A stretch of 64,000 nucleotides of DNA from Azolla caroliniana (taxonomy: Eukaryota > Plantae > Polypodiophyta): the NCBI GenBank assembly GCA_043228905.1, contig JBHGNT010000007.1, positions 17,980,001 to 18,044,000 of the forward strand. Direction: 5' to 3'. Below are positions 3,401-52,057 of the stretch, piece by piece. A model generated the notes under the pieces. It worked only from the letters and a program-made list of their open reading frames with translations. It was not told the DNA's origin and did not search any database. How positions within the stretch are numbered: position 1 is the first letter of the stretch; each line of letters begins with the position of its first letter. A program made the translations under genes and the position numbers.

Positions 3401-6133
3401 CACAAGATTATACTTTGATTTTATTTATGATGACAATAGAGTTAGATCTATCACAAATAGCACACAAATTGTCTGTAAAGCATAGTGATCCAATACTTAT
3501 TTCTTGTAGGTCATTAACACTCCCACAATTTCAAACAGAATACTAGATAACATAGCAGTTAGCCACATACTTTATTTGCAAGCCTAGACTATTTCCCTCT
3601 TAATGAGAGTATAGGTTTCATCTCTAACTAACCTACAACCCAAATAGTTTCATGACTCTTACGATATTTGTCTGCCACTTTTATCTCTCTCCTCTTGTTT
3701 GTTCATCCACAAAGTGAATTATATGAGCCTGAACTATGCATAAAGCTATGTATAGAAGTTTGTAGAAGGGATAAATAACTATGTTCAAGAATTTGGCTAT
3801 TTGTGAAAGAAGTTTACCTGTATGTGAACCATAGATACTTTAATTTATAGTGCGTTAACAGATGCTTACATGGTTGAATCTGTGATCTACCATTGACAGT
3901 GTAATGAAGCACGCTCAGATGATGCACCCGATGCGGATGTTTCTTCAGTGATTACATCTGCATCAGGGAGGAAAGGGCATGAAGCAGGTAAAGACTATGT
4001 TCTAATGTTTGTGTTTCTCTGTGATTTCTATTATAATGTTCATGTTCGTATTATCATTGATTTACTCACCAGAAACCTTGTATTTGTTAGGGCGTACACA
4101 TGTGTTGGTCATTCGAGGGTTAGATGAAGATGTCCACGAAGAGATACTGCGTTATGAATTCTCCAAACATGCTCCTATTAAGGTGCTAGCTAACTATTTC
4201 TGACCAAGGGAACTAAGAACGTTTTGTATTTGTTCATGATAATGTTGGGGTTTATAAGTCAATGGTGTTCTGCAGGATTTAAGGCTTGTTCGGGATAAAT
4301 TCACGCATGTTTCAAAGGGTTTTGCGTTTGTGCACTTCCATTCGGTATGGTTTATGATGATGCTCCTTACTAAGGAGTGGCCGAGAATACAAGGCATTGA
4401 AGAGAGGCTGTTGCAAAAAAAATCTGTGGAATGGACTTCTGATATTTTGTGATGGATGCCTCTTATGCTTTTAAGGTGGAGGATGCAACGAAAGCTTTAG
4501 AAGCAACCAACGGTACCATGCTTGATAAGAATGGGCATCCATTAAGGGTAGCTTATGCGAAGAGTACGAATGGCCCGGGCTCTTCTTCCAGTGCTCATTC
4601 CAACAACAGTCTTGCTGCTGCTGCAATTGAAGCTGCTGGATTTGCACAACAGGTTTTTCATGATCCGTTGGGTTATGCTAGAATGAAATAGTACATTAAA
4701 TTCCCTTGTTATATACATTGATATTAGTTGGTCAAAACATGAAAGAAAGACTGATATAAGTGCTAAATAAATAATAATATTTTTCGCAAAAAATTCTTGA
4801 GAAACAAAAAAAACTGAACTTCAAATGGTATCAAAATATTTTGCTTTCTTGACAGTATGATCCAGCAGGTTGGGCTCCGAAAGAGTACAATCCTGATGAA
4901 GTGCAACAGAATGATGGAATTTCAGCAAATAGTGATCCTGCTCCACAAGCAGGTTTTGTTTGGGATGAAGCATCAGGCTATTATTATGATGCTGTATCTG
5001 GGTTCTACTATGATGGTCACCGAGGTAAGCTTTAAATGCTTACATAGTTAAACTTGAATTGTGCTCAATATGTTCTAAATATGCACTCTTTTATTTATAT
5101 TTGGTGCTGTTTTTCTTGTAAAGGCTTGTACTATGATGGAAACCATGGCATTTGGTACACGTACAATCAAGAGACACAACAATACGAGCCTTATGTCTTG
5201 AAAGAAGGAGAAAGTGTAACTGCAAATTCATCGTCTTCAGCACAGCCTCCAAATCATCAAAAGTCGACCCAAAAAGCGACTGTGGTAGCTAATGCAACAG
5301 TGAAGTCTAAAGATGCGACCACTGTCCGGAAAGCAGTAATCTCAGCTCCGCCCTCAACTATACATGTAGAACAAGATAGCAGTACTAAGGTAGGAGTCAT
5401 CCAGAAGAAAGAGAAAGGTCGTAAAAGCAAAACCAAGATCAGTGGGGTCTCTTCTATATGGAACCAAAAGCAAGAGGGCGGTGTTCAAGCTGTAACTGTC
5501 CAAAGCCCGGTCCTGCTGAAAGTCTCTCCTGCCATTGAGAATCTGAAAAGGAATGCTCTGGTAAATGAGAATCAAGAGAAAAGTGCACTGGCCAAATCAG
5601 TTTCTGGTATCGGAGCTTCATCTGCCTCGGCAACAGCAACGATCCCAAAGAAGATTCAGGGAGTCATACATCGAAAACAGACTTTGAGTAAAGGATCGCT
5701 GGCAGAAGAATCTCGTCTTCTGGGCGAAACCGCATACAATGTCTCAGCTAAAACTAGCGGAGTTGCAGCAACACCCAAGTTGGAAGGTGTTATACATTCA
5801 AGAGATGGACCTACTAGTGGTGGTGGCATAGTGACGATCCCGAAGAAATTTGAAGGTGTAATACATTCGAAAGATGGACCTATGCTCTCAATGCATTCAA
5901 TAGGACAAGGAACAGGGGATTTGAAATCAGTAGAGAACTCATTCAAGATGATCAACAACACTACGCTATCGATAAATGTAGGGTTCAGTGAAGCCAGGGA
6001 TCCAAAAGGAGATTCCACATCATCGTTCCCAGGAGGTGGTAGGCGAAGATTTACTGAGGCTCCAGCAGCCCCGACTCAATCTGGCTATAGAGACAGGGCA
6101 GCCGAGAGGAGAAATCTTTATGGTGGATCGTAA
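403..6133 (+). CDS. SUA: SUPPRESSOR OF ABI3-5-like / RBM5-RBM10 family splicing factor (RS/RD-rich region, RRM1, RanBP2 zinc finger, RRM2, OCRE); no G-patch in window
   Basis: GT-AG exons 403-453, 653-693, 847-1579, 1681-1752, 1877-1969, 2074-2153, 2754-2868, 3900-3987, 4091-4182, 4276-4344, 4476-4652, 4856-5024 and 5124-6133 join in frame (2790 nt). Motifs: N-terminus MDGGRFVLHQAGWDDKS; RRM1 AEWGPLRHVRVIKERNTGTSRGFAFIDF; ZnF DWMCTVCGCVNFARRMSCFQC; RRM2 DLRLVRDKFTHVSKGFAFVHF; OCRE GFVWDEASGYYYDAVSGFYYDG; YRDRAAERR. An in-frame ATG also lies at 382. Confidence 0.92.
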
Positions 6134-6750
6134 CACTGGCCGTCTATATTTTGAAATCATCAGAGGAACATCATCGATCTTCCATTTTCTTTTCTTCACT
6201 TTTCTCTAATACTTGTAACTACTTTGCACAAGAATGTTTACCATTTTGCACATGGCTAGTATAGCCACATTGGGCTAGAATCTTAATGGTTGGTATTTGT
6301 TAGCTGCTTTGGGCAAGAATCTTCATATCGGCAGGGTTTCAATTTTTATGTATTGGAAATTGGGCCTTCCAGGTTGCTGTTCTGAACATCATATTTTGTT
6401 CCCTTTATTATTAAGAGGCTCGTTGTTAAACGGAATGTTCCCTTTATTTTACATCATTTTCTTGGCATATGCGATGATGCTTGTCAGTTTTATCTGAAAG
6501 ATCAAATTCTGCACTTTGTGAAGATACTACTGTTCCAATATAGTGGACTGGACGGTGGCAGCAAAGTATCGTCAGCATATGTTTTTGTTCTTTTGCATAT
6601 GAGCTTGAAGTTGACTATACAAAGGGACTTTTCATAAGAAGTTGGCATGTGGGATTTTCTTTCATCCCATGTTTTATCGTGAACTTATATCCTATATTCT
6701 GATGCTTGTCACTAAGAGTATTTTTATTAGAGAAAGTTCTGGAGTAAAAG

Positions 6751-7695
6751 TAGCAATGGGCTGGGTTCGGTTCGGTTTCTTGACCTTGAAACCAAACCAA
6801 ACCAAGCCACACGATTTATTCATAATAAAAATTGACCCTAACTGTTTAAAATTTATGAAGCCGTTTAAACCAAACCGTTTATGGAAAATTTATAACCAAA
6901 CTGTATCGGTTTATCATAAATCAAAAGGAAACCATTTTTGACAGATGTTGATTGTCATACTTATTATAAATATGTGTGAGAAAATCATAAATTTGTTCAT
7001 TATACTTATTATAAATTTGGTCATCATACTTATTATAAATTTGATCATTGAACTTATCATAAATTTGATCATTGTACTTATCATAAATTTGGTCATCAAT
7101 ACTTACCATAAATTTGATCATTGTACTTATCATAAATTTGGTCATCAATACTTACCATAAATTTGATCATTGTACTTATCATAAATTTGGTCATCAATAC
7201 TTACCATAAATTTGATCATTGTACTTATCATAAATTTGGTCGTCATAATTATCATAAATTTGATCATCGTACTTATCATAAATTTGATCATCAAACTTAT
7301 CATAAATTTGTTCATTGTACTTATCATAAATTTGATCATCGTACTTATCATAAATTTGATGATCATAAATGAAAAGGAGACTCTAGATATAATGCATATA
7401 AAATTTAATAAGTTAAAACTAGGGTTTAAAATTGAAAGTTGAAAGTTAGGGCCTAAAGGGAAAATTTAGGAGTATTTTTTAACTTATAAACCTTTAAACC
7501 GAACCACATAAATCGCAACAGATAAGCTAATAAACTGTTAAACCACTAAACCACGAAATTCAAAATCGAACCGAACAGAAACCAAACTGAATAGTAACAT
7601 TTGAAACCAAACCAAACTTTATTTAACTTCGAACCAATAAACCGTTCAGCCACGGTTTAATGGTTCGGTTTGAGCCGAAACCGGGCCCATTACTA
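6751..7695. mobile_element. Non-autonomous hAT-superfamily DNA transposon (MITE-like, 945 bp)
   Basis: Imperfect TIRs TAGCAATGGGC / GCCCATTACTA; perfect 8-bp TSD AGTAAAAG (6743-6750 and 7696-7703); many subterminal AAACC/AACCG motifs; no transposase. Confidence 0.88.
6950..7368. repeat. Minisatellite of 24/25-bp units (CATAAATTTGATCATTGTACTTAT / CATAAATTTGGTCATCAATACTTAC) inside the hAT element
   Basis: Roughly 16-17 tandem units; source of the spurious MIKFMIST-repeat ORFs in the ORF track. Confidence 0.9.
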
Positions 7696-7860: not shown

Positions 7861-7938
7861 CCAATGTGGAATGTAGGGGTCAAATCCATGACATCTTGCT
7901 CTCCATTGGGCAACCTTTCCAATTGAACTACATCCATC
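7861..7938 (-). mobile_element. tRNA-derived SINE-like head, copy 1 (degenerate)
   Basis: Minus strand reads GGATGTAGTTCAATTGGAAAG (A-box-like) ... CATGGATTTGACCCC (degenerate B-box); homologous to 8176-8255. Confidence 0.5.
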
Positions 7939-8175: not shown

Positions 8176-8253
8176 TGTCTTGGGTTCATAACCCAATTGT
8201 GGAATGTAGGGGTTGAACCCATGACCTCCTGGTCGCCATTGGGCAATCTTACC

Positions 8254-8255
<2 letters not shown>
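8176..8255 (-). mobile_element. tRNA-derived SINE-like head, copy 2 (5'-truncated at the AG microsatellite)
   Basis: Minus strand TTGGTAAG-N16-CAGGAGGTCATGGGTTCAACCCC carries a B-box; aligns with copy 1. Confidence 0.5.
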
Positions 8256-30034: not shown

Positions 30035-30830
30035 TGTCGTAGTGTAATACGCACACTACGTGGAAAATTACATTTTTGGTCTCTCCGGATAGGACATGGA
30101 GTACCCGGTGAGAATCGGAAGAAGGAACTGGTAAGGATCGAAACTGGTAAGGAGACCCGGCAAGAGCCGGATGAAGAAGGCCGGTAAGAGTCGGTGAGAA
30201 ACGGACGAAGAGATCGGTAAGGAGGTCCTGGTAAGAACCGGACAAAGAAAACTAGCAAGCACCGGATGAAGCAGAACCGGAAAGAACCGGATGAAGAGAC
30301 ATATTTGTAAATAGAAGAAAGTATAAAAAAAAAATATATTACATGCATAGGGCAAGATTCGAACCTTGCACGTCCATGTTAATAATGTTAAGCCTTATCA
30401 TTATACTAGGCTATTATGAATTTTAAAGTTATACTAAACTTTATCCCATGTAAAATTTCTAGACATGCATGGTACAAAACGTTATTCATGCATAGACACT
30501 CGAGTTAAAAGAAAAGATGAGATAGAAAGCTAATCATACACATGCAGTGTGCATGAAAACTAAAGATAGGAAAAGCATGATGCTTGCATGTGATAAACTT
30601 AGACTCTTCCAACACTATATAAGGAAGGGAGAAAGATGTATAGAGGTTGTTGATTATTTTTAAAGGGGATTAATATAATATAATCGTGGGATTCACGAGT
30701 TTTTCATATCTTTCTTTCTTACAATATATTTCATATTCTTAATTGCCTTAGAGTTTTCTTTCCTCCTAGTCCAAAACCTCAGCGGTTCCCACCCAACTCA
30801 CGCAACCATCCGGAGCCGTAAGGCACGACA
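30035..30830 (+). mobile_element. Solo LTR (796 bp) related to element F LTRs
   Basis: TGTCGT...ACGACA ends; 4-bp TSD ACGT on both sides; inserted in B1 gag; same order of CCGG-rich block, antisense tRNA-like cassette, CATG-rich block and TATA as the F LTR. Confidence 0.88.
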
Positions 30831-32816
30831 ACGTACCCCACAACTCTCTTCCCCATAACGCGCCACAGGCCAACATGCCTACACAAGCGGCCGGGAACCA
30901 CTCACAACCTTTCCCACACCCTGAGCACAGTGACACCAGCAACTCGACATCCGTTACCTGCTTTAAGAGTAACCAACCCGGCCACTACGCTACCCAATGC
31001 CCAACCACAGACCGTGGCAAGGACCCAGCCGTGAATACTATTATGGCCGACGTCCAACACATCACTACACGCAGCAAATCCCAGGCCACCCAATGGCAGG
31101 TACAAGACATCCGACAAGCAACCAAGGAATGGATTGACACCGCTAACAAAAGCAACGTGGAGCGGATGCACACAGAGATGTAGGACGTGAGCATCGGAGA
31201 ACCATAGTCCACCGGACCATCCACCGCGGCAGAAGATGACCATCTGTGGGACACCCTTACCAGTTCTAGGATCTCGCTGCCATTACATAAGCTTTTACCG
31301 CTTATGCCACGCTTTCGAGAGACCTTGGCTACGCTCATGACTAACGACAAATCGACCGCACCCCCGGTGAACCTGACAGAGCTGGGGACGCATTAGATAT
31401 AGCCATTGGCAGTGCGCTCATTCAACGCACACCACCAAATTGGTACCGGCCAGTGTATTACGCTAGCCGACGACTCTCAGCCGTGGAAAAGAACTACTCA
31501 ACAACTGAATGCGAGGCCCTCGGTATGGTCTATAACATCAACAAATTCCGGCATTACCTCTTGGGCCGGAACTTCACATTCCATGTTGATCACTCGGCTC
31601 TTCTCTACTTGGTTAATAAGCAGTCCTTCACAGGTCGCTTGGCCCGATGGATGCTCCTGCTACAGGAGTTTGATTTTCAGATCCAACACCGGCCCGACGT
31701 TCAACACGCCGTAGCTGATTACTTGAGCCGCCTCGAGTTAGGAGAACCAACCGAGTCTATGTACGATGATCTACCCGACACCGCCCTTTTCAGTCTCGCA
31801 ATGGTGCCAAACAAAAATGAAGATGAATGGATCACGGAGATGACCCATTTTCTCAGCACCGGCCTTCCTCCCGACCAGTTGACCCTTGACGCTCGGAAAC
31901 GACTAGCTGTCAGGAGCCGAAACTTTTGTCTCGTCTTCGACACCCTCTACCACAAAGGATCAGACGGCATCTGGCGCCATGCAATCCTTCAATTCGAGAA
32001 ACACGCAATCCTCCAGGAGGCACATCACGGAATCGTGGGGGGACATTACGCTGGAGAGGCCACGACAAGAAAAATATGGCAGAGTGGCTAATGGTGGCCC
32101 ACAACAAAAAAAGATGCTCATGAATTCTGTCGATAGTGCGATCTGTATCAACTCATGGGACAATCGATTGAGCAAGCCCGGATGCCGCACCAACCCATCC
32201 TCCTGTTAGAACCATTTCAAAAGTGCAGGTTAGATTTTATGGGACCTTTCAAACTAGCCGCGGCTCGCATCGGTAACAAATACATAATCGTGGCCACGGA
32301 CTATTGCACCAAATGGGTCGAGGCTAAGGCACTACGAGACAACAAGACTGCATCCACGACAAAATTCATATACGAACATCTATGGTGCCGATATGGATGC
32401 CTAATCGAGCTCATGTCAAGATTCGAACTCTTGACACGACCATGTTATAATCTACTATTATGAGTTAACCAAGATATCTAGTACTAGTTATGTATGTAAT
32501 TGTTCCTTATTATTTTGCTAGCATCATGTGCATAGTTGCTCCCTTGTAGTATTTACACTTGGCACATGCATGCATACCTACATGCTCTATTGTAGATTCA
32601 CATGCGTGCAACAAGTATGCATGCCATGTAGTATAAATAGAGGAGTTCACCTTGAAGGAATTCAAGGTGAACAACACCAGTTATGGAGTCTTTCCTTTAG
32701 TACTATCTTCTTTCTTGTCCATTTGGTTATCTTCTTCGTTGTCTCTTGAGTTTATGATCCGTGACAGTCTGTTCACCTTCCCATCCTCATAGCTCTCCCT
32801 CTCATAAGCCATAGCT

Positions 32817-36800: not shown

Positions 36801-37384
36801 ATTTATCCTTGGAGCTTAGTCTTGCTAATGAACGATACAAGAAGCAGGCTGATCGCCATCGATCTTCCACTCCACACTTTGTCGTTGGAGACATGGTCTG
36901 GTTGTTACGTCGACACATCTCTACTACTCGTCCATGTGCGAAACTTGATTACAAGAAGTTAGGACCATTCCGTATCATCGAGTGCATCAATCCCGTCGCC
37001 TTCCGGCTCGCCCTTCCATCCCACTTCCGGATTCACGATGTTTTTCATGTCTCCCTCCTCGAACCCCATTATGCTTCACAACTCCCAGGACGTCAAGCCC
37101 CACCACCACCACCTGTGCAATTGACGACAGGGGAGGAATACGTGGTCGACCAAATCCTTGACTCGCGTTGGCACCGTCGACACTTGCAATACCTCGTCCT
37201 ATGGAGGGGTTACCCCATGTCTGAGGCCACATGGGAACCATCGGCAAATTTACAAAATGCCCCAGAGGTCGTCCAAGATTTTCATCACCGATATCCCCAC
37301 AAACCAGCGGCTGATTTGGGAAGGCGACGGCGTAAGAGGGGGGATAATGTCAAGATTCGAACTCTTGACACGACCATGTTATAA
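33806..37384 (+). pseudogene. Chromovirus pol: PR-RT-RH-INT-chromodomain (one internal TGA near 36000)
   Basis: LLDSGAS, YLDDILIF, ETDASDFAIG, HPQTDGQTER, GPF, and chromodomain EYVVDQILDSR...YLVLWRGY...TWEP. Confidence 0.95.
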
Positions 37385-39149
37385 TCTACTATTATGAGTT
37401 AACCAAGATATCTAGTACTAGTTATGTATGTAATTGTTCCTTATTATTTTGCTAGCATCATGTGCATAGTTGCTCCCTTGTAGTATTTACACTTGGCACA
37501 TGCATGCATACCTACATGCTCTATTGTAGATTCACATGCGTGCAACAAGTATGCATGCCATGTAGTATAAATAGAGGAGTCCACCTTGAAGGAATTCAAG
37601 GTGAACAACACCAGTTATGGAGTCTTTCCTTTAGTACTATCTTCTTTCTTGTCCATTTGGTTATCTTCTTCGTTGTCTCTTGAGTTTATGATCCGTGACA
37701 GCTCATTAGTGACCAAGGTGGGCATTTTATAAACCACTTAATTCACGAGCTCACTACACACTACGCGGTGGTACATATGAAAAGTACACCATACTATCCT
37801 CAGGCAAATGGATTAGCGGAATCTACTAATAAAAATTTGCAAACAATCTTGAAAAAGATCGTCAATGAGAACCACACCGATTGGGATAACAAACTCCAGA
37901 GTGCATTATGGGCGTATCGCACCACATTTAAAACTAGCATTCAATCTACACCCTTTTGGATGGCCTTTGGTTTGGAAGCAGTCATGCCGATCAACTTCCA
38001 AGTTCCGAGTCTCCGAGTTCAGGTTAAGGAAAGGCTACCCGAGGCCCAATCAGAGCAATATCAGCTCGAACAACTCCTCGAACTCGGCGAACATCGAGTG
38101 GCCAACATGGCTCAATTGGAACAACGCCAATGACAACGCAAAGCCTTCGTTGATTGTCACCGGAAAGGTACGGAGAAAACACTTACCATCGGCAAACCGG
38201 TACTGGTCTTTGAAACACGACTCGGTGCTATGCCGGGGAAATTACGATTCCGATGGACAGGCCCCTTCTGGATAATTGATGAGTTTAACGGCACATTCCA
38301 ACTTGGCACACTTGTCGGAGACATCGTCAAAAGCTGGGTAAATGGATTCTGACTCCGACCTTACCATGGAAATGATAGGAACTACACGCTCCGGTGAATG
38401 ACGCGCGGCCACAACCGAGTCTAAAAATCAAACACAGAAAAAACAGGTAATGTACGCACGACACAAAGGTGAGAGAGGAGTGCACAGGATGTTTAACGTG
38501 GAAAACCCTGAGAGGGGAAAACCACGGAAGTCCACCGACTTCAAACTATCACTATATCACAATGATCACAACAGTGAGTTCACGGAGGCAATAACCTCGT
38601 TCTCACGATCTTCGCCACAGGCGGTGGTTACAACAGAGGCAACGACCTCTTCCTCTCTCTTCCTCTCTCTCCCTCTCTCTGTACACTGTTACGCTCTCAC
38701 TAGTCTTGCACCAACAAGAATGACAACGACACACTCAAAAGTTTTCCCTAAGTCATATTTATACTAATATGACTTCTCCGCTACTTACAAATAGAGCCAC
38801 GATGGACTCTCAGAAACATATTTACGAATATGTCTCTTCATCCGGAGAGCGCTCCTCACCGGGCCTGCATCATCCGGATCTTGTCAGGCACTCGTCATCT
38901 GGTTCTCACCGGGTCTGCACCATCCGGCTCTCCGTAGCCGGGTACTCCTCATCCGGTTCTCACCGGGTCTGCGCCATCCGGCTCTCCGTAGCCGGGTACT
39001 CCTCATCCGGTTCTCACCGGGTCTGCGCTATCCGGCTCTCCGTAGCCAGGTAATCCTCATCCGGTTTCCCATCCACACTGTTCTTCTCCCTTCCCATCCG
39101 GAGGGACCTGTTTCCTAGCAAACTCCCCCTTCACTCCGGCATGGGATGT

Positions 39150-43171: not shown

Positions 43172-44386
43172 TTTCTATGTCGTTTCGCTCTGATACCACT
43201 TTGATAGGAACTACACGCTTCGGTGAATGACGCTCGGCTACAACCGAGTCTAAAAATCAAACACAGAAAAAATAGGTAATGTACGCACGACACAAAGGTG
43301 AGAGAGGAGTGCACAGGATATTTAACGTTGTCGTGAAGATCTGTCACTACGCGCGGATCGTGAGGCGGAACCGCCGGGGTTCTGAACCAGAAGGATTTAG
43401 AGTCGATACAATCTTTGGCGAGAAAGTACTTAAGATAGATTGGGAAAGAGAGAAGTTAAGATTACACGATCAATTTGATAACGAATTTCTTCCTCTTAAT
43501 TTTCATAAAAAAAACCGTGTTTTTTCTCCTCCCCCTTCCTTCTTTTATAGATGCTCTCATGCATATGATGCATGTGAGGGTACAAGACATGCATAAATTG
43601 CATGTTTGCCATTTGGCGCTTAAGTATTACATGTGGTGCATGATAACCATGTCACTCATTTTAGCTCTCATGTATGAGAATTTACATGTAAAAGTACAAT
43701 GATAGAAATATAATTTCAACTAAATAGCATGGCTTAATGGTAAGCCAATTGACTCGTAACTTGGAGGTGCAAGGTTTGAATCCATACTTGCCCTCCTTGT
43801 ATATGTAAATATGTAAATATATTTATATATTTATTTATCTAGTAGCCGGACGCCCGTTCGCCGGATGCCGTTGGTTACCGGTGCCTCGCCGGATACCGCC
43901 GCCGGATTGCCGTCGGATCACCGGCTCCATCGCCGGTCCGGTTTTGGTTGGCCAAAACCCTTTATGAGTAGCTAGCCACCTCCACTCTTAGTTCAAGTTA
44001 CCTTGAACTCTCTATGCTCCACACATAGACACAAAGATAATATCTTTTGCTCCACCTTATATATGATGAGAGCCATATTTGCGTGCCTATGTGGGATATC
44101 TCACAATTTTCTCTTTTCTTTTCACAAACTTTATACCCTCATATCTTGACATTTAGTTGTCCATTTCTCGTGTAATAAAGTGCATTCGAAACCTCCATCA
44201 TTTTGTACTTAGATATTAAAAATGTTATCTTTACAATTATTGTATTACGTGATTCATACTCGATTTCGTACGTTTTATGGGATTTTCACACTATTGCCGA
44301 AAATCTTCACGACATCCACCCCCACCAAACCGCACGTCCTCCGGTACGTGCCAAGAAGAGAAGAAGTGAGATTTTGGCTATGATGA

Positions 44387-47300
44387 TCAATTAGATTCCT
44401 CCATGTCTTCATTTTCATCCGGCCTATTATGTTCATCGTCGAGGTAATCGAGGTCAGGATCCTTGTCTTGTCTTTTCTTGAAAAGCTTTACTCTTTTTCC
44501 CGCAATGGGTACGACCAACCTTGATCCGTCTAGTTCCGCAAGGTGGTATGTGGCATTATCGTTGGCACTTGTCACCACATACGGCCCGAACCATCTTCTT
44601 GCGAACTTCCTTGTTGTACTATGTTGATTGTCAAGGGTGCTGTCGTAAACCAAAACCCAATCCCCTTCTTCAATCTTCTTGGGACGAAGTCGATGCGTGT
44701 TGTCGAACCGAACTTTGTTCTTTACTCGGGCTTCCTTCATCATCTTTCGCGCTTTTTCTAAATCTTCAGGTCTTCTTTCAAGTTGCCTTATCCGCGCCGC
44801 TAATAACTCTTCTCGGCTCATCTCGTTCTCCCACGGTATCGCTACCCATGAGGCGATCGTCCTTTCGATGGGCATAATCGGCTTTTGTCCATACATAAGC
44901 TCCGTCGGCATATACCCTGTCACCGAGCTATGTGTCGTTCTATCGGCCCACAAGGCATAGGGTAATAGTTGTGGCCAATTCCCGACTCGACCGTTGCATG
45001 CCCGTATGATGGCTTTAACGATAGGTTCATGCCCTCGCTCGATCTTCCCATTTGCTTCCGGATTGTAGGTAGTCGTGAGGGAGAGCTTCACGCCTAGTCT
45101 TTCGAAGAGCTCCGTCGCTTCGTGCGCGTCCAACTCCCCTCGGTCGGCCACTATCTTCCCTACACATCCATATCGGCAAACAACATCTTCAAGTAAAAAT
45201 TTACAAACGGCTGAAGTCGTCTTATTTGTCAAGGCTCGTCCTTCCACTTGATTTGTCAAGTCTTCCCTTGCGAGTGCTAAGTACTTCATTTGTCCCACTC
45301 CCATTGGCATCGAGACCAGATCCACCATCCATTTGAAGTGAATGGTGAGTGGGTATGTCGGCTTTAACTCATCACGATGACGTATATTTGAATATATTTG
45401 GCAAGTTTCACATGTGGACACGAAATGGAGTACATCTTTGTACATGCTTGGCCACCAGTACTTCTCCTTCAATTTTTCGAACGTCGCCCATGTTCCTCTA
45501 TGACTTGCCCAGGCACTCTCGTGGAATTCGGTCATCAGCGTCTCTTGCTCTTCTTTCTTTACCACCACTCGACGTGGTATTCCCGTCCTTCTTTTTGGAT
45601 GTCGCCAAAGGAATCCTCCCTTCAAGAAGTATCGATAAGCTTTCTTTTGGATTCGTAGGGCCTCCTCCTTTGTCAACGAAACATCTGCCGTCAATGTTCT
45701 TAGGAATCTACCGATGAGTAACCACTCTCCTTCGTACTCGTTCTCGTTGAAGGCGTGGAGGGTTTGCATGTCCCGGTCTTCCGCCGACAATCGAGCCATC
45801 TTGAAGAAGTCGAGGGCGACATCTTCATCTTCTGAAACCATGTTACTTTCATTTGAAAATCTTGCCCTTGACAGCATGTCAGCCATGGCGTTCTTCTTCC
45901 CTGCAATGTGACGGATCTATGGGTTTAAAGACTTGATGTAGGCGATCCACCTTAGCATAGCAAGATCTGGGGTCGCACATCCGGAGACCATTCCGAGAAT
46001 TGGGAGACAATTTGTCTCTATTATCACTTCTGACCCGATCAGGTAATCTTTGTCCGTCTTCACTGCCGACACAATACCCGAAAGTTCCCGCTTGACTTGG
46101 GCATATCTTTGTTGCCGTTCGCTGAGAACCTTTGCTCCGAACCGGACGGCATATCGCGCATTATCTTCACCTTCTTGATTGATGACCCACCCGATTCCGG
46201 TTGGGCTCGTATCTACAGTCACGTAAATTGGTTTCCCTTCGGCATAGTCGGCCTTCCTTAGTGCCGGAGCTTCAAGAAGCAGTTTCTTTAATCTTCGCAT
46301 CGCCTCTGTGTGCTCGTCTCGCCATTTGAACTTTATTCTTTTCTTTAGTAGTCCATATAACGGTTCGGCGACATGAACGTAGTGAGGAATCCATATATGA
46401 TAAAATGCGCACGCTCCAAGGAACCTTCGAACCTCCGTTTGGTTTTCGCATTCTTCTTTCATGTCTTGGATTGCGTTCACTTTGGATGGCGAGGGCTTCC
46501 GACCATATGCTCCACACAAGTGACCTATCACCAAGATCTCCGGTTGCCCGAATGCGGATTTTTCTCCCGAAAATGTCAAATTCGCATCTTCGAGCCTTTG
46601 AAGCACCTTCTCGCAATATTTCATATGATCCGCAACGAACTTTCTACAACCTTCCTTATCTTTCGATTCATCTTTCTCCTCATCCGAACATCCTTTTATC
46701 GGAATATCATCCAAGAATGGCATCGTGATGTCCAGAATGCAATCCTTCAAGACTTTATTCATGGCATTCACCATATGAGCCACCGAGTTCGTTGCGCCTT
46801 GGGGTAAGGTACACATCCGCACAAGCCCGATCGGAGTCCTCATGGTTGTAATGTCCCGACTGTTGATCGCCAACTGGAATTGGTCATATCCGGAGTAGAG
46901 ATCGCCAATGGAGTAGATGGACCGGCCCGCAAACGCTTCGACAAATTCGTCCACGCTCGGACCGATTCCGGCATTTCGAATTATCACCTTGTTGACGGGT
47001 TGAAGATCTTGGATGAATCGCAATGATCCATTCTTCTTCGGCACCGTGAACCACCTATTGGAATAAGGAGCATTCGACGGTTCTAGAATTCCCATACTCA
47101 CCTTCTCCTTTAAGAGCTCGATCAGCTTCGGAAGGTGTGCTCTCGGAACCGGTATCAGTTTCAAATTCCAAGGCACATGAGGCACCGTGAAGATCACAAT
47201 TGGCTCTATAACCTTTGGGTCGGCGCATCCGATTTCTCGTGGGAAGAATGCGAAAGCCTTCCCATGTCTCTCAAGCATATCGCGAAACATTCGGTCCTCT

Positions 47301-47881
47301 TCAGGGAGAAGGAAATTCTCCTTTCCAACTCGTAGCTTCCCCTTCGTCTCTTTGGTGAAGACATGACCTATCTTCTTCGGATCTCTTAAGCTTGGATCGT
47401 TAGCGACTTCCTTCATCTTTTGCCAGCTATCTTCCGGTAGCGGAACCGCAATTGGCTTGATCTTCTTAACCACCGTTTTATATTTCGTGTTGATGTCAGC
47501 TTCCTTCATCGAGATGCCACGACGGTATTCATCGATGATAGCGTACATGTTGACGGAGTTAACCGAAATCACGCGTTGGTTGTGAAGATAGCTCAAGTCC
47601 ACGATGTCCTCGATTTCGCCGATGGTGTCGTTAAATGAGGCTTCTTCCATAATATGAGTCACGAACTCTCCTTCTTCTATTATATTCTCTTCTTTCAGCA
47701 TCTTCTCGAATTCTTGTATCCGGCGCTTGTGCTTCTTGTCGGGTAGTACTAGTTTACATGCGCCACTAGGTGTGACACATGTTGCTTCTCCTTGCAATCC
47801 ACGCACTCTTCTTTCTTGTGGGGTCTTGTGATTGCTCGGACTATTTGTGCCCCATGCTTCAATAGTCCGCTCTAAAAATCC
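44387..47881 (-). pseudogene. Element F RT-RH-INT (pol, -1 frame of gag-PR; frameshift near 45917)
   Basis: LPQGATNS, PFLDDIPIKG, VTVDTSPTGIG, YNPEANGKIER and RWFGPY motifs. Confidence 0.93.
47819..47881 (-). promoter_or_regulatory. Putative -1 frameshift signal G GAU UUU + H-type pseudoknot between PR and RT
   Basis: Heptamer immediately before the TAG; 9-bp stem CGGACTATT/AATAGTCCG 5 nt downstream; loop TGGGG can pair with downstream CCCCA; -1 frame open into RT. Confidence 0.75.
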
Positions 47882-50070
47882 GAGGATTCGCTTCTGAGAC
47901 TATCTCGATTCCTTTCATGATTGGCTCGCACCGTTAGGAATTGGACCGATCTTTGGTTGTCAAGACTCTTTATTCGTGCGAAGGCTGCTCCATTATCGAA
48001 CACTTTGGTCTCCATCCGAGATGATGTGATATAAGGTTGCCCTAGGATGACAGGATGCGACGCCGATTCTTGTACGAAGAAGTGTTGATCCATCTCCACA
48101 TCCCCGATCGTGACTTTGACATTGGGACAAGCTCTGTACAAGTCCTCCGTAGACTTTGTTGCCGCGCAAATCTTCCATCCGTGGTTTGTATTGATTGGCC
48201 ATCTTCCCTTTTTGTAGAAGTCGGTTGACATGAGGTTGATCTCCGAGCAGTGGTCGATCAAGGCTACGACGGTCTCTTTCTTCTCCCCGATCTTCACCGG
48301 CATCTCCGTTGTCGCTCGTGCCCAATGAGGTCGAGTGTAGTGGCTGTCCACCATATCTTCATCGATTTCGTCTCTTGCCATCGTTATGGCATTCGTTTTT
48401 GCTTTTTGTGGCTTCTCTTCTTCCTCGTCCGATTGTTGTCTCTTTCTCTTTACAAGGTCCACGATCGTGTCATGGAACTCCTTCTTCGTAATGCCAAGCA
48501 ATTCCCTCAAGGACAAAGTTATGTGGCTATCAAGAACTCGTTCTTCGAGAATCTTCTTTAGGTCCGTCGTCTGCTCTATGTCCGACCTTAGCTTATAGGT
48601 AGGTATAGTCCTTGTCCTCCGAGCGGGGTCTTCGACACCAACCTTCACGGGCCGAACCGTTTCTTCAACTCGTATGCTTGGCTCCCCTTTTCGGCTTGAT
48701 TCTCGTTCCTCCGTTTGTAAAGGTCGACTCGTCTCCGCATCGTCCTTCTTTTTCGCGTTCCTTGTTTCATGTCTTTTAGATGGGCCTTGCTCTTCTATTC
48801 TCTTTCTCTTTTCTTCGACGAACACCTCGTGGTTGTCGCACATCACCTCTGCGAGTATGGTGTTGTCGTCCACCGGATCCGACCACCCGGGTATGCTTTG
48901 CACGTTTCGGTCCGCAAGCTCTACGTCGTTCCATGTGACTTTTCCCTTCTTCTCATATTCGAGAACGGAAGTCCAAAACTTTGCTCCCGCTCTAGCAGCT
49001 TCAGTCTTGTCTTTCCCGACTCTTATTCCGGCCGACGCAGCATAGTGCATCGCATCCACATGAGTCGCAGCGGCATCCTCCATAGATTTCTTCATTCCTC
49101 CTCTTCCGAAATTCACCCGTAGGGGTCTTCTAGTCTCGCTTGAGTAGATCATGTTGTCCTCTATGTATACGATATTTTGTTGAATCGCCTCTCGAAGGCT
49201 CGCACAATCCCTTCTCATGTGGTCCATGCTATCGCACCACACGCATCTAAAGGGTTCTTTTCCTTTAGGGCCCCGACGATTCATGTTGGCTAGCGTGACC
49301 TTCTCGAACTTCTTCGCTAGCTCTTCAATGATGTCGTCATCAATCTTCTTTTCTTCCACGTTACTTTGTCTCAGCGGCTCAGCTACTTTCGGCGGTCTTG
49401 CTTTCTCTGTGGTAGTCGGTCCCGTCAAGTCGGTGTCATCAACCCATTGTCAACGCTTGTCGAGCCTATTGCATGCCCACTTCACCGCGATCCAGTCCGC
49501 TACGAGCCCATTTGCTTGGGTATCATCTTCGAGAAGAGTCCCCAACTCCCGTCTATCCTTTATGTCCACAGCCTTCAAGAAGTACAAAGTCTTGTCCTCT
49601 TCAAGCAACACTTGGTCCGTATTGGGGAGACGACTAAACATTTGGTCGAATTCGTTGTACACCCTCGAGACGCTCATCTTCTTATTCTTCTTCTCTATCC
49701 ACTTCATCAGGGCATGTCGAGTCATCCTCGTTGAGTCTTCAGTCACGAACTCCGCTAGTATCGTTTTCTCGAACTCGGACCATGTTGTCTTACCTTCTTG
49801 AAGCTCGATGACGCGTCTTTGGATGTTGTTGGCGACAACTCTCTTGAAGCTTGCGATTTGACGTGCCTCGGACACGTCCCTTTGATTCATCTCCCTCTTA
49901 TATGCATCAAGGAACTTCGTAACGTTCCTTCCATCGAATTGGCCCTCGAGCTCTACGACACGATCGACAACCTTCTCCACGCTCGCGTCGTTGTCCCGAG
50001 ATCTCCTCATTTGCTCGACGATTAGCACCATCCTTTCGAGCTCTCCTGCTTGGTTGCTTGAGGACGCCAT
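47872..50070 (-). pseudogene. Element F gag + aspartic protease (one internal TGA at 49450-49452)
   Basis: CVWCDSMDHMRRDC knuckle; ALIDHCSEINLM protease core; ILGQPY motif. Confidence 0.88.
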
Positions 50071-50111
50071 CTCCAAGTATTAATCTCGACTTGATCCTTC
50101 CTACTGCCTCT

Positions 50112-50129
50112 TTCATGTCGGGTTCACCA
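50112..50129 (-). promoter_or_regulatory. Primer-binding site complementary to tRNA-Trp 3' end
   Basis: TGGTGAACCCGACATGAA versus plant tRNA-Trp 3' end ...TTCACGTCGGGTTCACCA (recalled from memory; one mismatch). Confidence 0.75.
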
Positions 50130-50533
50130 CTTAATTATGTCGTGAAGATCCGTCACTACGCGCGGATCGTGAGGCGGAACCGTCGGGGTTCTGGACCAGA
50201 AGGATTTAGAGTTGATACAAGCTTTGGCGAGAAAGTACTTAAGATAGATTGGGAAAGAGAGAAGTTAAGATTACACGATCAATTTGATAACGAATTTCTT
50301 CCTCTTAATTTTCATAAAAAAAACCGTGTTTTTTCTCCTCCCCCTTCCTTCTTTTATAGATGCTCTCATGCATATGATGCATGTGAGGGTACAAGACATG
50401 CATAAATTGCATGTTTGCCATTTGGCGCTTAAGTATTACATGTGGTGCATGATAACCATGTCACTCATTTTAGCTCTCATGTATGAGAATTTACATGTAA
50501 AAGTACAATGATAGAAATATAATTTCAACTAAA

Positions 50534-50602
50534 TAGCATGGCTTAATGGTAAGCCAATTGACTCGTAACTTGGAGGTGCAAGGTTCGAATCCATACTTGC
50601 CC
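50534..50602 (+). promoter_or_regulatory. tRNA-like Pol III A-box/B-box cassette in the U3 of element F, antisense to the element (second copy 43725-43793)
   Basis: A-box TGGCTTAATGG 50539-50549 with D-stem GCTT/AAGC; B-box GGTTCGAATCC 50582-50592; tRNA-like spacing. Confidence 0.7.
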
Positions 50603-52057
50603 TCCTTGTATATGTAAATATGTAAATATATTTATATATTTATTTATCTAGTCGCCGGATGCCGCCGCCGGATACCGGTGCCGGATTGCGGTCGGACGCC
50701 GTCGGATAACCGGCTCCATCGCCGGTCCGGTTTTGGTTGGCCAAAACCCTTTATGAGTAGCTAGCCACCTCCACTCTTAGTTCAAGTTACCTTGAACTCT
50801 CTATGCTCCACACATAGACACAAAGATAATATCTTTTGCTCCACTTTGTATATGATGAGAGCCGTATTTGTCGTGCCTATGTGGGATATCTCACAATTTT
50901 CTCTTTTCTTTTCACAAACTTTATACCCTCATATCTTGACATTTAGTTGTCCATTTCTCGTGTAATAAAGTGCATTCGAAACCTCCATCATTTTGTATTT
51001 AGATATTAAAAATGTTATCTTCACAATTATTGTATTACGTGATTCATACTCGATTTCGTACGTTTTATGGGATTTTCACACTATTGCCGAAAATCTTCAC
51101 GACAATGTGGAAAAACCTGAGAGGGAAAAACCATGGAAGTCCACCGACTTCAAACTATCACTATATCACAATGATCACAACAATGAGTTCACGGAGGCAA
51201 CAACCTCGTGCTCACGATCTTCGCCACAGGCGGTGGTTACAACAGAGGCAACGACCTCTTTCTCTCTCTCCCTCTCTCTGTACACTGTTACACTCTCACT
51301 AGTCTTGCACCAACAAGAATGACAACGACACACTCAAAAGTTTACCCTAAGTCATATTTATACTAATATGACTTCTCGGCTACTTACAAATAGAGCCACG
51401 ATGGACTCTCAGAAACATATTTACGAATATATCTCTTCATCCGGAGAGCGCTCCTCACCGGGCCTGCATCATCCGGATCTTGTCGGGCACTCGTCATCCG
51501 GTCTCACTGGGTCTGCACCATCCGGCTCTCCGTAGCCGGGTACTCCTCATCCGGTTCTCACCGGGTCTGCGCCATCCAGCTCTCCGTAGCCGGGTACTCC
51601 TCATCCGGTTCTCACCAGGTTTGCGCTATCCGGCTCTCCATAGTGGGGTACTCTTCATCCGGTTTCTCCCTTCCCATCCGGAGGGACCTGTTTCCTAACA
51701 GGAAATACCCCCGAGAATCCCTTGACCGAGTCTCACGGCACGAAGGCGTCCATGTGTCCCCATCAGTAAAATACTGACCTACCCACCAAATGTATATGGT
51801 AGGAATAGTTTTAGCAGTTAAATTAGCCCTACCTAAACTACCTAACAAATCACCCCAAATCACGACATTTCTTAGGCGTGCCAACTAGTCACATTCACTT
51901 TAAAGTAAAATATTTAAGGAACATGCACACCACACATAGCACTCCTGTGACGCATGGCCATAATACCTTATTATGGCAGCCACAACCAAGAATCTAAAGG
52001 ATCTTCTCCCTGCACAAAACCCTAGGCAGTCACATAAAAGAAACTACCCCACACTCA

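Follow-up and report, generated by a model that had tools for sequence, protein, structure and literature searches.

tRNA-derived A/B-box cassettes in the U3 of protein-coding Ty3/gypsy LTR retrotransposons of the Phygy type: a candidate DNA-level Pol III promoter module

The stretch of DNA analyzed here (the window; 64 kb of an Azolla caroliniana contig) contains a Ty3/gypsy element, termed F, which is inserted within a copia LTR, and a solo LTR belonging to a second family, that of loci L035, L038 and L040. The U3 of both F LTRs and that of the solo LTR carry a tRNA-derived cassette with an A-box and a B-box. The features of the two hosts and of the cassettes are as follows, with residues of the cassettes numbered as in tRNA.

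43329-51104, minus strand: element F, Ty3/gypsy, 7776 bp
43325-43328, plus strand: target site duplication (TSD) of F, ACGT, with partner ATGT at 51105-51108
50138-51104, minus strand: F 5' LTR, 967 bp, TG...CA, with a 12-bp terminal inverted repeat
50112-50129, minus strand: primer-binding site (PBS) of F, 8 nt past the 5' LTR
44387-50079, minus strand: F coding region, gag (DUF4100), RT, RNase H and integrase in that order (Pfam)
44315-44326, minus strand: polypurine tract of F, preceding the 3' LTR
43329-44314, minus strand: F 3' LTR, 986 bp
50352-50359, minus strand: likely main Pol II TATA box of the F 5' LTR
43543-43550, minus strand: likely main Pol II TATA box of the F 3' LTR copy
30035-30830, plus strand: solo LTR, 796 bp, with the 4-bp TSD ACGT on both sides
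30615-30622, plus strand: likely main Pol II TATA box of the solo LTR
50532-50602, plus strand: tRNA-derived cassette (tRNA positions 1-72) of the F 5' LTR, antisense to F
50539-50549, plus strand: A-box (T8-G19) of this cassette
50574-50577, plus strand: its conserved stretch A44-G45-G46-T47, upstream of the B-box
50582-50591, plus strand: its B-box (G52-C61), 43 nt from T8
43723-43793, plus strand: cassette of the F 3' LTR, in which C56 is T (at 43777)
30345-30415, minus strand: cassette of the solo LTR, antisense to that LTR

The two LTRs of F differ by 21 substitutions in 966 aligned sites, the coding region of this copy carries in-frame stops, and a Pfam search of F gave no Chromo (chromodomain) match. 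The Phygy clade of non-chromovirus Ty3/gypsy elements is described as having a 4-bp NCGN target duplication, a length of 7656-9968 bp and a compact coding region (PMC6317226, partial text). F and the solo LTR fit this clade, since both have 4-bp TSDs of the ACGT type and F, at 7776 bp, falls within the size range and has a compact gag-pol without a chromodomain; the partial text of that description holds no mention of Pol III motifs in LTRs. The pooled flanks of about 100 contigs per DNA run end in ACGT. The named relatives are Riccia proteins, and three scans of viral contigs found no relative. A single PBS 18-mer, a putative match to tRNA-Trp (a PBS for this tRNA being a criterion of Phygy), is present in 31 of 37 sites. 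In F the PBS lies 8 nt from the LTR end (window 50112-50137), and in relatives this gap ranges from about 1 to 8 nt.

The family is very abundant in public DNA runs, with 3685 contigs in run X1 and 3561 in run X5 matching 50125-50605; across this interval the contig depth over the cassette is about that of the neighboring U3, and the cassette is family-wide, as opposed to a one-off insertion. Among the 40 of 53 contig variants listed, none falls at T8, G10, A14, G18 or G19, the B-box lying near the edge of the interval, while position 50565, which corresponds to the central anticodon base, varies among F-family copies. Run X17, guessed to be RNA of the organism that carries F, contributed two contigs matching the same interval, which cannot show strand or ends.

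An earlier note on this DNA had reported A- and B-box strings at tRNA spacing in both F LTRs. The strings and their spacing are there, but the cassettes start at 50532 and 43723, and the 3' LTR copy, GGTTTGAATCC, has a B-box that is damaged at C56 and hence not consensus. The solo-LTR version is collinear and gap-free, as had been stated, but position 19 of its A-box is A. All three window copies are indeed antisense to their element, and the reported location upstream of the TATA box holds, the distance to the CTATA(A/T)A box being 171 nt in the F 5' LTR and 198 nt in the solo LTR, the two intact-box copies that were measured. Of the D-stem also reported, a hairpin does fold in the F copy, but it is not kept across families.

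When the F LTR is compared with the solo LTR by BLAST, the cassette alone matches significantly (75.8% over 62 nt, E 1e-4), with one further HSP at E 0.64. A profile trained without the F and solo-LTR families scores the three window copies at 45.3, 39.6 and 30.4, and the next independent match in the 64 kb scores 14.6. Within the window, the copia LTRs have no profile match and the chromovirus LTRs a weak one only. These chromovirus LTRs (355 bp, 99.7% alike) open, at window 32414-32471 and 37348-37405, with a perfect 8-bp hairpin, the loop of which is an antisense B-box-like motif whose weak profile score of 13.1 may be chance. A functional tRNA gene was rejected as an explanation of the window cassettes: ARAGORN reported no tRNA there, lowered thresholds producing noise only, Rfam gave no match at E<=5, and stem pairing across the 29 cassettes analyzed below is at chance level.

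The wider distribution was surveyed in relatives chosen by integrase alone, these being the best 80 of 127 retrieved by integrase alignment. They were divided into 17 integrase groups on a quick tree of 76 of 81 segments, cut by eye, with LTR similarity used to place five loci that the tree did not include. A generic A/B score, which is family-independent and leaves the A-B spacing free from 35 to 60, was applied to up to 800 nt of 3' LTR; it reached at least 26 in 13 of 43 3' LTR regions (window element included), a score that none of 215 shuffles or 43 coding regions attained, both controls being scored on the antisense strand. The matches comprise eight antisense and seven sense, and the spacing is 43-44 in 14 of the 15 top matches, the fifteenth tying with a 43. 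A leave-group-out profile, trained without the integrase group being tested, reached at least 12 in 28 of 68 LTR regions (two of these being the window's own and one a nested F-type fragment), compared with none of 204 shuffles or 49 coding regions. Matches of at least 20 occur in 11 of the 17 integrase groups, a further group has a weak match and five have none of their own, although the groups are not fully independent, because U3 segments are shared across them and 77 of the 80 loci come from 13 assemblies with neighboring accession numbers. The match at L047 falls in a nested piece of an F-type LTR whose B-box is broken, and it does not enter the tally of its group; that at L011, a SINE-like head outside the LTR, was excluded from the seeds. 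Retention of a tRNA-derived A/B-box module in the U3 of protein-coding gypsy LTRs, as the earlier note held, is supported. On the other hand, the module is dispensable, because complete LTRs without a cassette are found in three well-represented groups among the five matchless ones, C4 (L023, L054), C13 (L015, L017) and C14 (L010), and C13 and C14 also have no USE-TATA motif of the kind described below.

Two or three cassettes per LTR region occur in L016, L026, L028, L045 and L050. For detailed analysis 29 cassettes were used, with near-identical duplicates and weak matches left out. Twenty-one are antisense and eight sense, so that the antisense orientation, noted earlier for the window copies, does not extend to the families generally; some cassettes, moreover, lie downstream of the TATA box (the sense ones of L026 and L028 and the third copy in L050). 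The B-box half of the cassette is partly duplicated in tandem at L026:3302-3347 and L050:4260-4288. F U3 segments recur in LTR regions beside distant integrase groups (L027:4789-4986, L045:515-680, L052, L054 and L067), which suggests exchange of U3 modules or nesting.

Among the 29 cassettes, pairing in the acceptor, D, anticodon and T stems is no better than in a partner-swap control, while G18, G46, G53, T55, A58 and C61 are present in all. G45-G46-T47 is found in 17 of 21 seeds and in 9 of 9 seed groups, at positions that the seeding score did not use. In yeast, a base ahead of the B-box is contacted by TFIIIC, and altering positions 44-47 affects both binding and transcription (PMC11724288, partial text). 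Within families (six small sets), substitutions per site amount to 0.24 upstream, 0.25 in the spacer and 0.25 downstream, as against 0.17 in the A-box, 0.10 at positions 44-47 and 0.09 in the B-box; the boxes thus change more slowly than spacer and flanks, as had been anticipated, although conservation of the A-box is modest (0.17 versus 0.24-0.25) and that of the boxes in general is partly circular, with decayed copies liable to be missed, because the cassettes were found by their boxes. In the same sets, gap openings per 100 sites are 3.2 and 3.5 in the flanks and 0.1 in the spacer, or about 30-fold fewer. A T4 run occurs within 60 nt downstream in 21 of 29 cassettes (six of eight sense, 15 of 21 antisense), versus an A4 in 3 of 29, and within 7-177 nt in all 29. 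The solo-LTR cassette has a run of ten T (30334-30325) beginning 22 nt past its B-box, and at the F 5' LTR cassette the first T4 lies 140 nt away. In the 15 LTR copies where a purine-tailed TATA was found, it lies a median of 152 nt downstream of the nearest cassette (range 68-233).

The evidence free of circularity consists of G45-T47, the spacing found under a free range and the T-run asymmetry. Preservation of boxes, spacing and G45-T47, with loss of tRNA folding and of spacer sequence, is the pattern expected of a DNA promoter and not of a structured RNA, as judged from sequence. The features of a type 2 Pol III promoter (A-box, B-box, tRNA spacing and a downstream T-run) are found together, with the limits in F that the first T-run, at +140, is no longer than T4 and that the 3' LTR copy is without C56, the mutation of which cuts yeast TFIIIC binding 370-fold (PMC11811891, partial text). 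Two sequence-testable outcomes named beforehand as counting against retention, decay of the boxes at background rate and confinement of the cassette to these copies as an incidental SINE carrying its own TSD, are not what the data revealed. T33, present in 23 of 29 cassettes, and A37 and A38, also enriched, are features that a TFIIIC/Pol III site does not explain. A B-box hairpin in a shifted register averages 5.3 bp, versus 4.4 bp in swap controls, and is inconsistent between families.

A further promoter motif, resembling that of U6 genes, lies in the U3 of F.

50877-50887, minus strand: snRNA-type USE of the F 5' LTR, element-sense
50845-50852, minus strand: TATA-like box of the F 5' LTR, 24 nt past the USE (23 nt in the 3' LTR)
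44087-44097, minus strand: snRNA-type USE of the F 3' LTR copy, in a USE-TATA unit at 44056-44097
50731-50746, both strands: back-to-back T4 runs (50731-50734 on plus, 50746-50743 on minus), candidate first Pol III stops

The F USE has one mismatch to the published consensus, and the arrangement in the F LTRs, a USE followed by TATA at 23-24 bp, has the sequence hallmarks of a type 3 (U6-like) Pol III promoter; such a spacing is of the Pol III type in Arabidopsis (PMC8287931), and for moss U6 a distance of about 25 bp is given. The cassette and the USE unit of F are convergent, with 8 nt separating the first T4 of one from that of the other. USE-TATA units occur also in L001, L019, L023, L024, L042, L054, L063 and L067. 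Exact matches to the USE core number 16 in the loci, as compared with about 5.5 expected by chance across all DNA searched, and in 10 of the 16 a TATA follows at 22-24 nt, each of these being sense and within an LTR. Eight distinct LTR sequences having the TATA at 24 nt show 0.11 differences per site in the USE and 0.64 in the spacer, and the units share ancestry. Most belong to group C4, which is without a tRNA cassette. This second motif, the assignment to a Phygy-type clade, the multiple cassettes per LTR and the cassette-free families go beyond the earlier note.

Yeast tRNA genes act as chromatin barriers. We regard the cassette as a tRNA-derived type 2 Pol III promoter motif that probably serves, at the DNA level, as a landing site for TFIIIC, TFIIIB and Pol III and keeps the Pol II promoter open, a reading to which we assign a probability of about one half. 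TFIIIC would bind the LTR cassette, and occupancy by TFIIIC, TFIIIB and Pol III would hold the Pol II promoter some 150 bp downstream open within silenced, transposon-rich chromatin, so that a barrier or anti-silencing effect would fall on the element's own promoter; short terminated transcripts may arise as a by-product. A site acting as DNA is favored because the RNA sequence is free, the orientation is free, another type of Pol III promoter seems to substitute for it and the median distance to the TATA is 152 nt. As to origin, the occurrence of cassettes in either orientation and at several positions, together with slightly more TSD-like repeats than expected, suggests that tRNA or SINE heads were captured repeatedly into LTRs, and the U3 segments shared between integrase groups suggest a later exchange of U3 modules that may have spread cassettes among families. 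A role of TFIIIC as a chromatin insulator has been described (PMC11811891, partial text). A broader and more tentative proposal is that Pol III promoters of both kinds, the tRNA-type bound by TFIIIC and the U6-type bound by SNAPc, are exchangeable U3 modules of Phygy-type elements, repeatedly captured as a portable anti-silencing device, and that F carries a convergent pair ending at one two-way terminator. If true, plant LTR elements that encode proteins would possess a new strategy, acting in cis, for countering silencing.

Other explanations draw on parts of the same evidence. Terminator-like T-runs downstream on the cassette coding strand might instead mark true Pol III genes, whose short RNAs would be useful as decoys or small-RNA precursors in the manner of the foamy-virus U3 cassettes, an unlikely but still serious alternative. 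The predicted RNAs of F fold well (z -4.2 for the 205-nt antisense unit, about 50530 to 50734 on plus, and -3.3 for the 79-nt USE-driven unit, about 50821 to 50743 on minus), Pol III miRNA cassettes do reside in foamy-virus U3 (PMC6950176, PMC7693620, partial texts), and miRNA loci of Cuscuta use U6-like promoters (bioRxiv 2022.07.06.498962). However, no sequence or fold is common to the families, the mean z of the 29 cassettes being about -1 on either strand; z near -3 is attained in only four of nine USE units, two of them F copies; and good folding is common in the F LTR, since other 80-nt segments of it reach z -2 to -3.4. A reading of the cassettes as passive relics, left where tRNA-derived SINEs repeatedly entered LTRs and since copied along, with apparent conservation owed to ascertainment, is also rather improbable. 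SINE-like tRNA heads exist in the window, and both orientations, several positions and absence from three groups would accord with such relics, as would TSD-like repeats of at least 8 nt, which flank nine of the 29 cassettes where 4.4 would be expected (p about 0.02); five of the nine end 38-46 nt past the B-box. Yet these repeats speak to origin and not to retention, and the F and solo copies have none. Passive copying is harder to reconcile with a spacer that changes at the flank substitution rate but has some 30-fold fewer gap openings, with the keeping of the unscored G45-T47, or with the cassette being the sole alignable part of the F and solo LTRs. The same holds for C56 to T in 2 of 29 cassettes and A57 in 13 of 29, though one CpG can give both and some A57 may be inherited.

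Pairing with tRNA has precedents in the HIV-1 U3 and in the bipartite primer site of Ty3, and an antisense cassette in genomic RNA could conceivably pair with a host tRNA and so aid priming or strand transfer. We consider this very improbable: 21 of 29 cassettes are antisense and conservation falls on bases of the tRNA loops, T33, A37 and A38 included, but positions 62-73 have 0.28 identity to the primer end as deduced from the PBS, none of the 21 antisense copies agrees with the primer at position 52, CCA is present in 0 of 29, the eight sense copies would be unable to pair so, and the T-run asymmetry tracks the cassette strand. Self-priming, or pairing with the element's primer tRNA, is accordingly not supported, as the direct comparison with the PBS-derived primer fails. 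Least credible, to the point of being nearly dismissed, is transcription of the element itself by Pol III from the cassette, a mode that has been shown for Cassandra and put forward for Helenus. Box conservation does resemble that of Helenus (PMC10886601, partial text) and eight of 29 cassettes are sense, but most are antisense, T-runs follow within 7-177 nt in every case, and the elements are about 8 kb long and protein-coding, with a TATA box downstream.

Compared with known systems, a DNA-level TFIIIC/Pol III site in these LTRs has several partial counterparts. Helenus TRIMs, including TRIMp3, have tRNA-derived LTR sequence that keeps the A- and B-boxes but holds no functional tRNA, and for which an origin by SINE insertion into an LTR has been proposed; "not a few" Repbase LTRs are said to resemble part of a tRNA, and the partial text gives no list of the non-TRIM ones (PMC10886601). 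The bare observation therefore has a precedent: tRNA-like boxes in LTRs are already known, and protein-coding Phygy-type carriers are a new variant. Helenus elements are non-coding and 311-1263 bp in length, with their only plant family in Selaginella; Pol III is proposed to make their RNA, and autonomous partners are expected not to share long LTR stretches with TRIMp3 (PMC10886601, partial text). F shares with them the tRNA-like sequence and its two boxes, but is not a Helenus, because it is long and coding (7.8 kb with gag-pol, as opposed to a non-coding element of up to about 1.3 kb) and its cassette points away, the antisense placement in F and in 21 of 29 cassettes being unsuited to transcribing the element. 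Phygy-type carriers as a whole differ from Helenus in an 8-kb gag-pol structure, a TATA box, mostly antisense cassettes, several cassettes per LTR and T-runs downstream. Cassandra likewise retains a captured Pol III promoter over long periods in plant LTRs, but this is a 5S-derived type 1 promoter, in a non-autonomous TRIM, which drives the element's own transcript (cited in PMC10886601, partial text). Foamy viruses, which are replication-competent, carry one to five Pol III units per LTR (TATA and/or A/B box plus terminator) in a non-coding U3; those units, however, encode dumbbell pri-miRNAs, demonstrated by sequencing in two viruses (PMC6950176, PMC7693620, partial texts), whereas the LTR cassettes have tRNA-gene geometry and no common fold, dumbbell or other (mean z about -1, 29 cassettes). 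Insulators formed by tRNA genes or extra TFIIIC sites are B-box-dependent and independent of RNA sequence, as proposed here for the LTR cassettes, but are known from the host chromosomes of yeasts and animals (PMC11811891, partial text), and none is shown in a plant retrotransposon in the papers found. Helenus, the closest precedent (PMC10886601, partial text), is absent from the earlier note. A literature search, with subscription journals, Repbase reports and bioRxiv supplements outside its scope, found no Pol III motifs described in Phygy or moss LTRs, and the word "tRNA" does not occur in the text of PMC7466625.

These findings bear on the question of how abundant plant LTR retrotransposons remain transcribable inside methylated transposon nests, to which one answer becomes directly testable in moss through a conserved, point-mutable candidate TFIIIC footprint lying roughly a nucleosome's length ahead of the TATA box. 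They carry the occurrence of small-RNA-gene promoters in LTRs beyond non-coding TRIMs, to elements that encode proteins. The F LTR is matched by thousands of contigs in each run, and at that abundance the elements would scatter very many potential TFIIIC sites genome-wide, with consequences for Pol III occupancy maps, chromatin boundaries and the annotation of tRNA pseudogenes.

Other features of the window may be recorded here. Two tRNA-derived SINE-like heads lie 333 bp apart (7865-7935 and 8198-8255, minus strand); they have a relative at L011:3075-3149 and are a possible donor type for LTR cassettes. A CATG- or CATGCA-rich stretch directly precedes the TATA box in three unrelated LTRs (50360-50500, 30450-30600 and 32520-32630), resembling the RY elements bound by B3 factors. 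At 5048-7413, an ORF with an OCRE domain match is followed by a 24-bp tandem array, of which 12 offset copies were reported.
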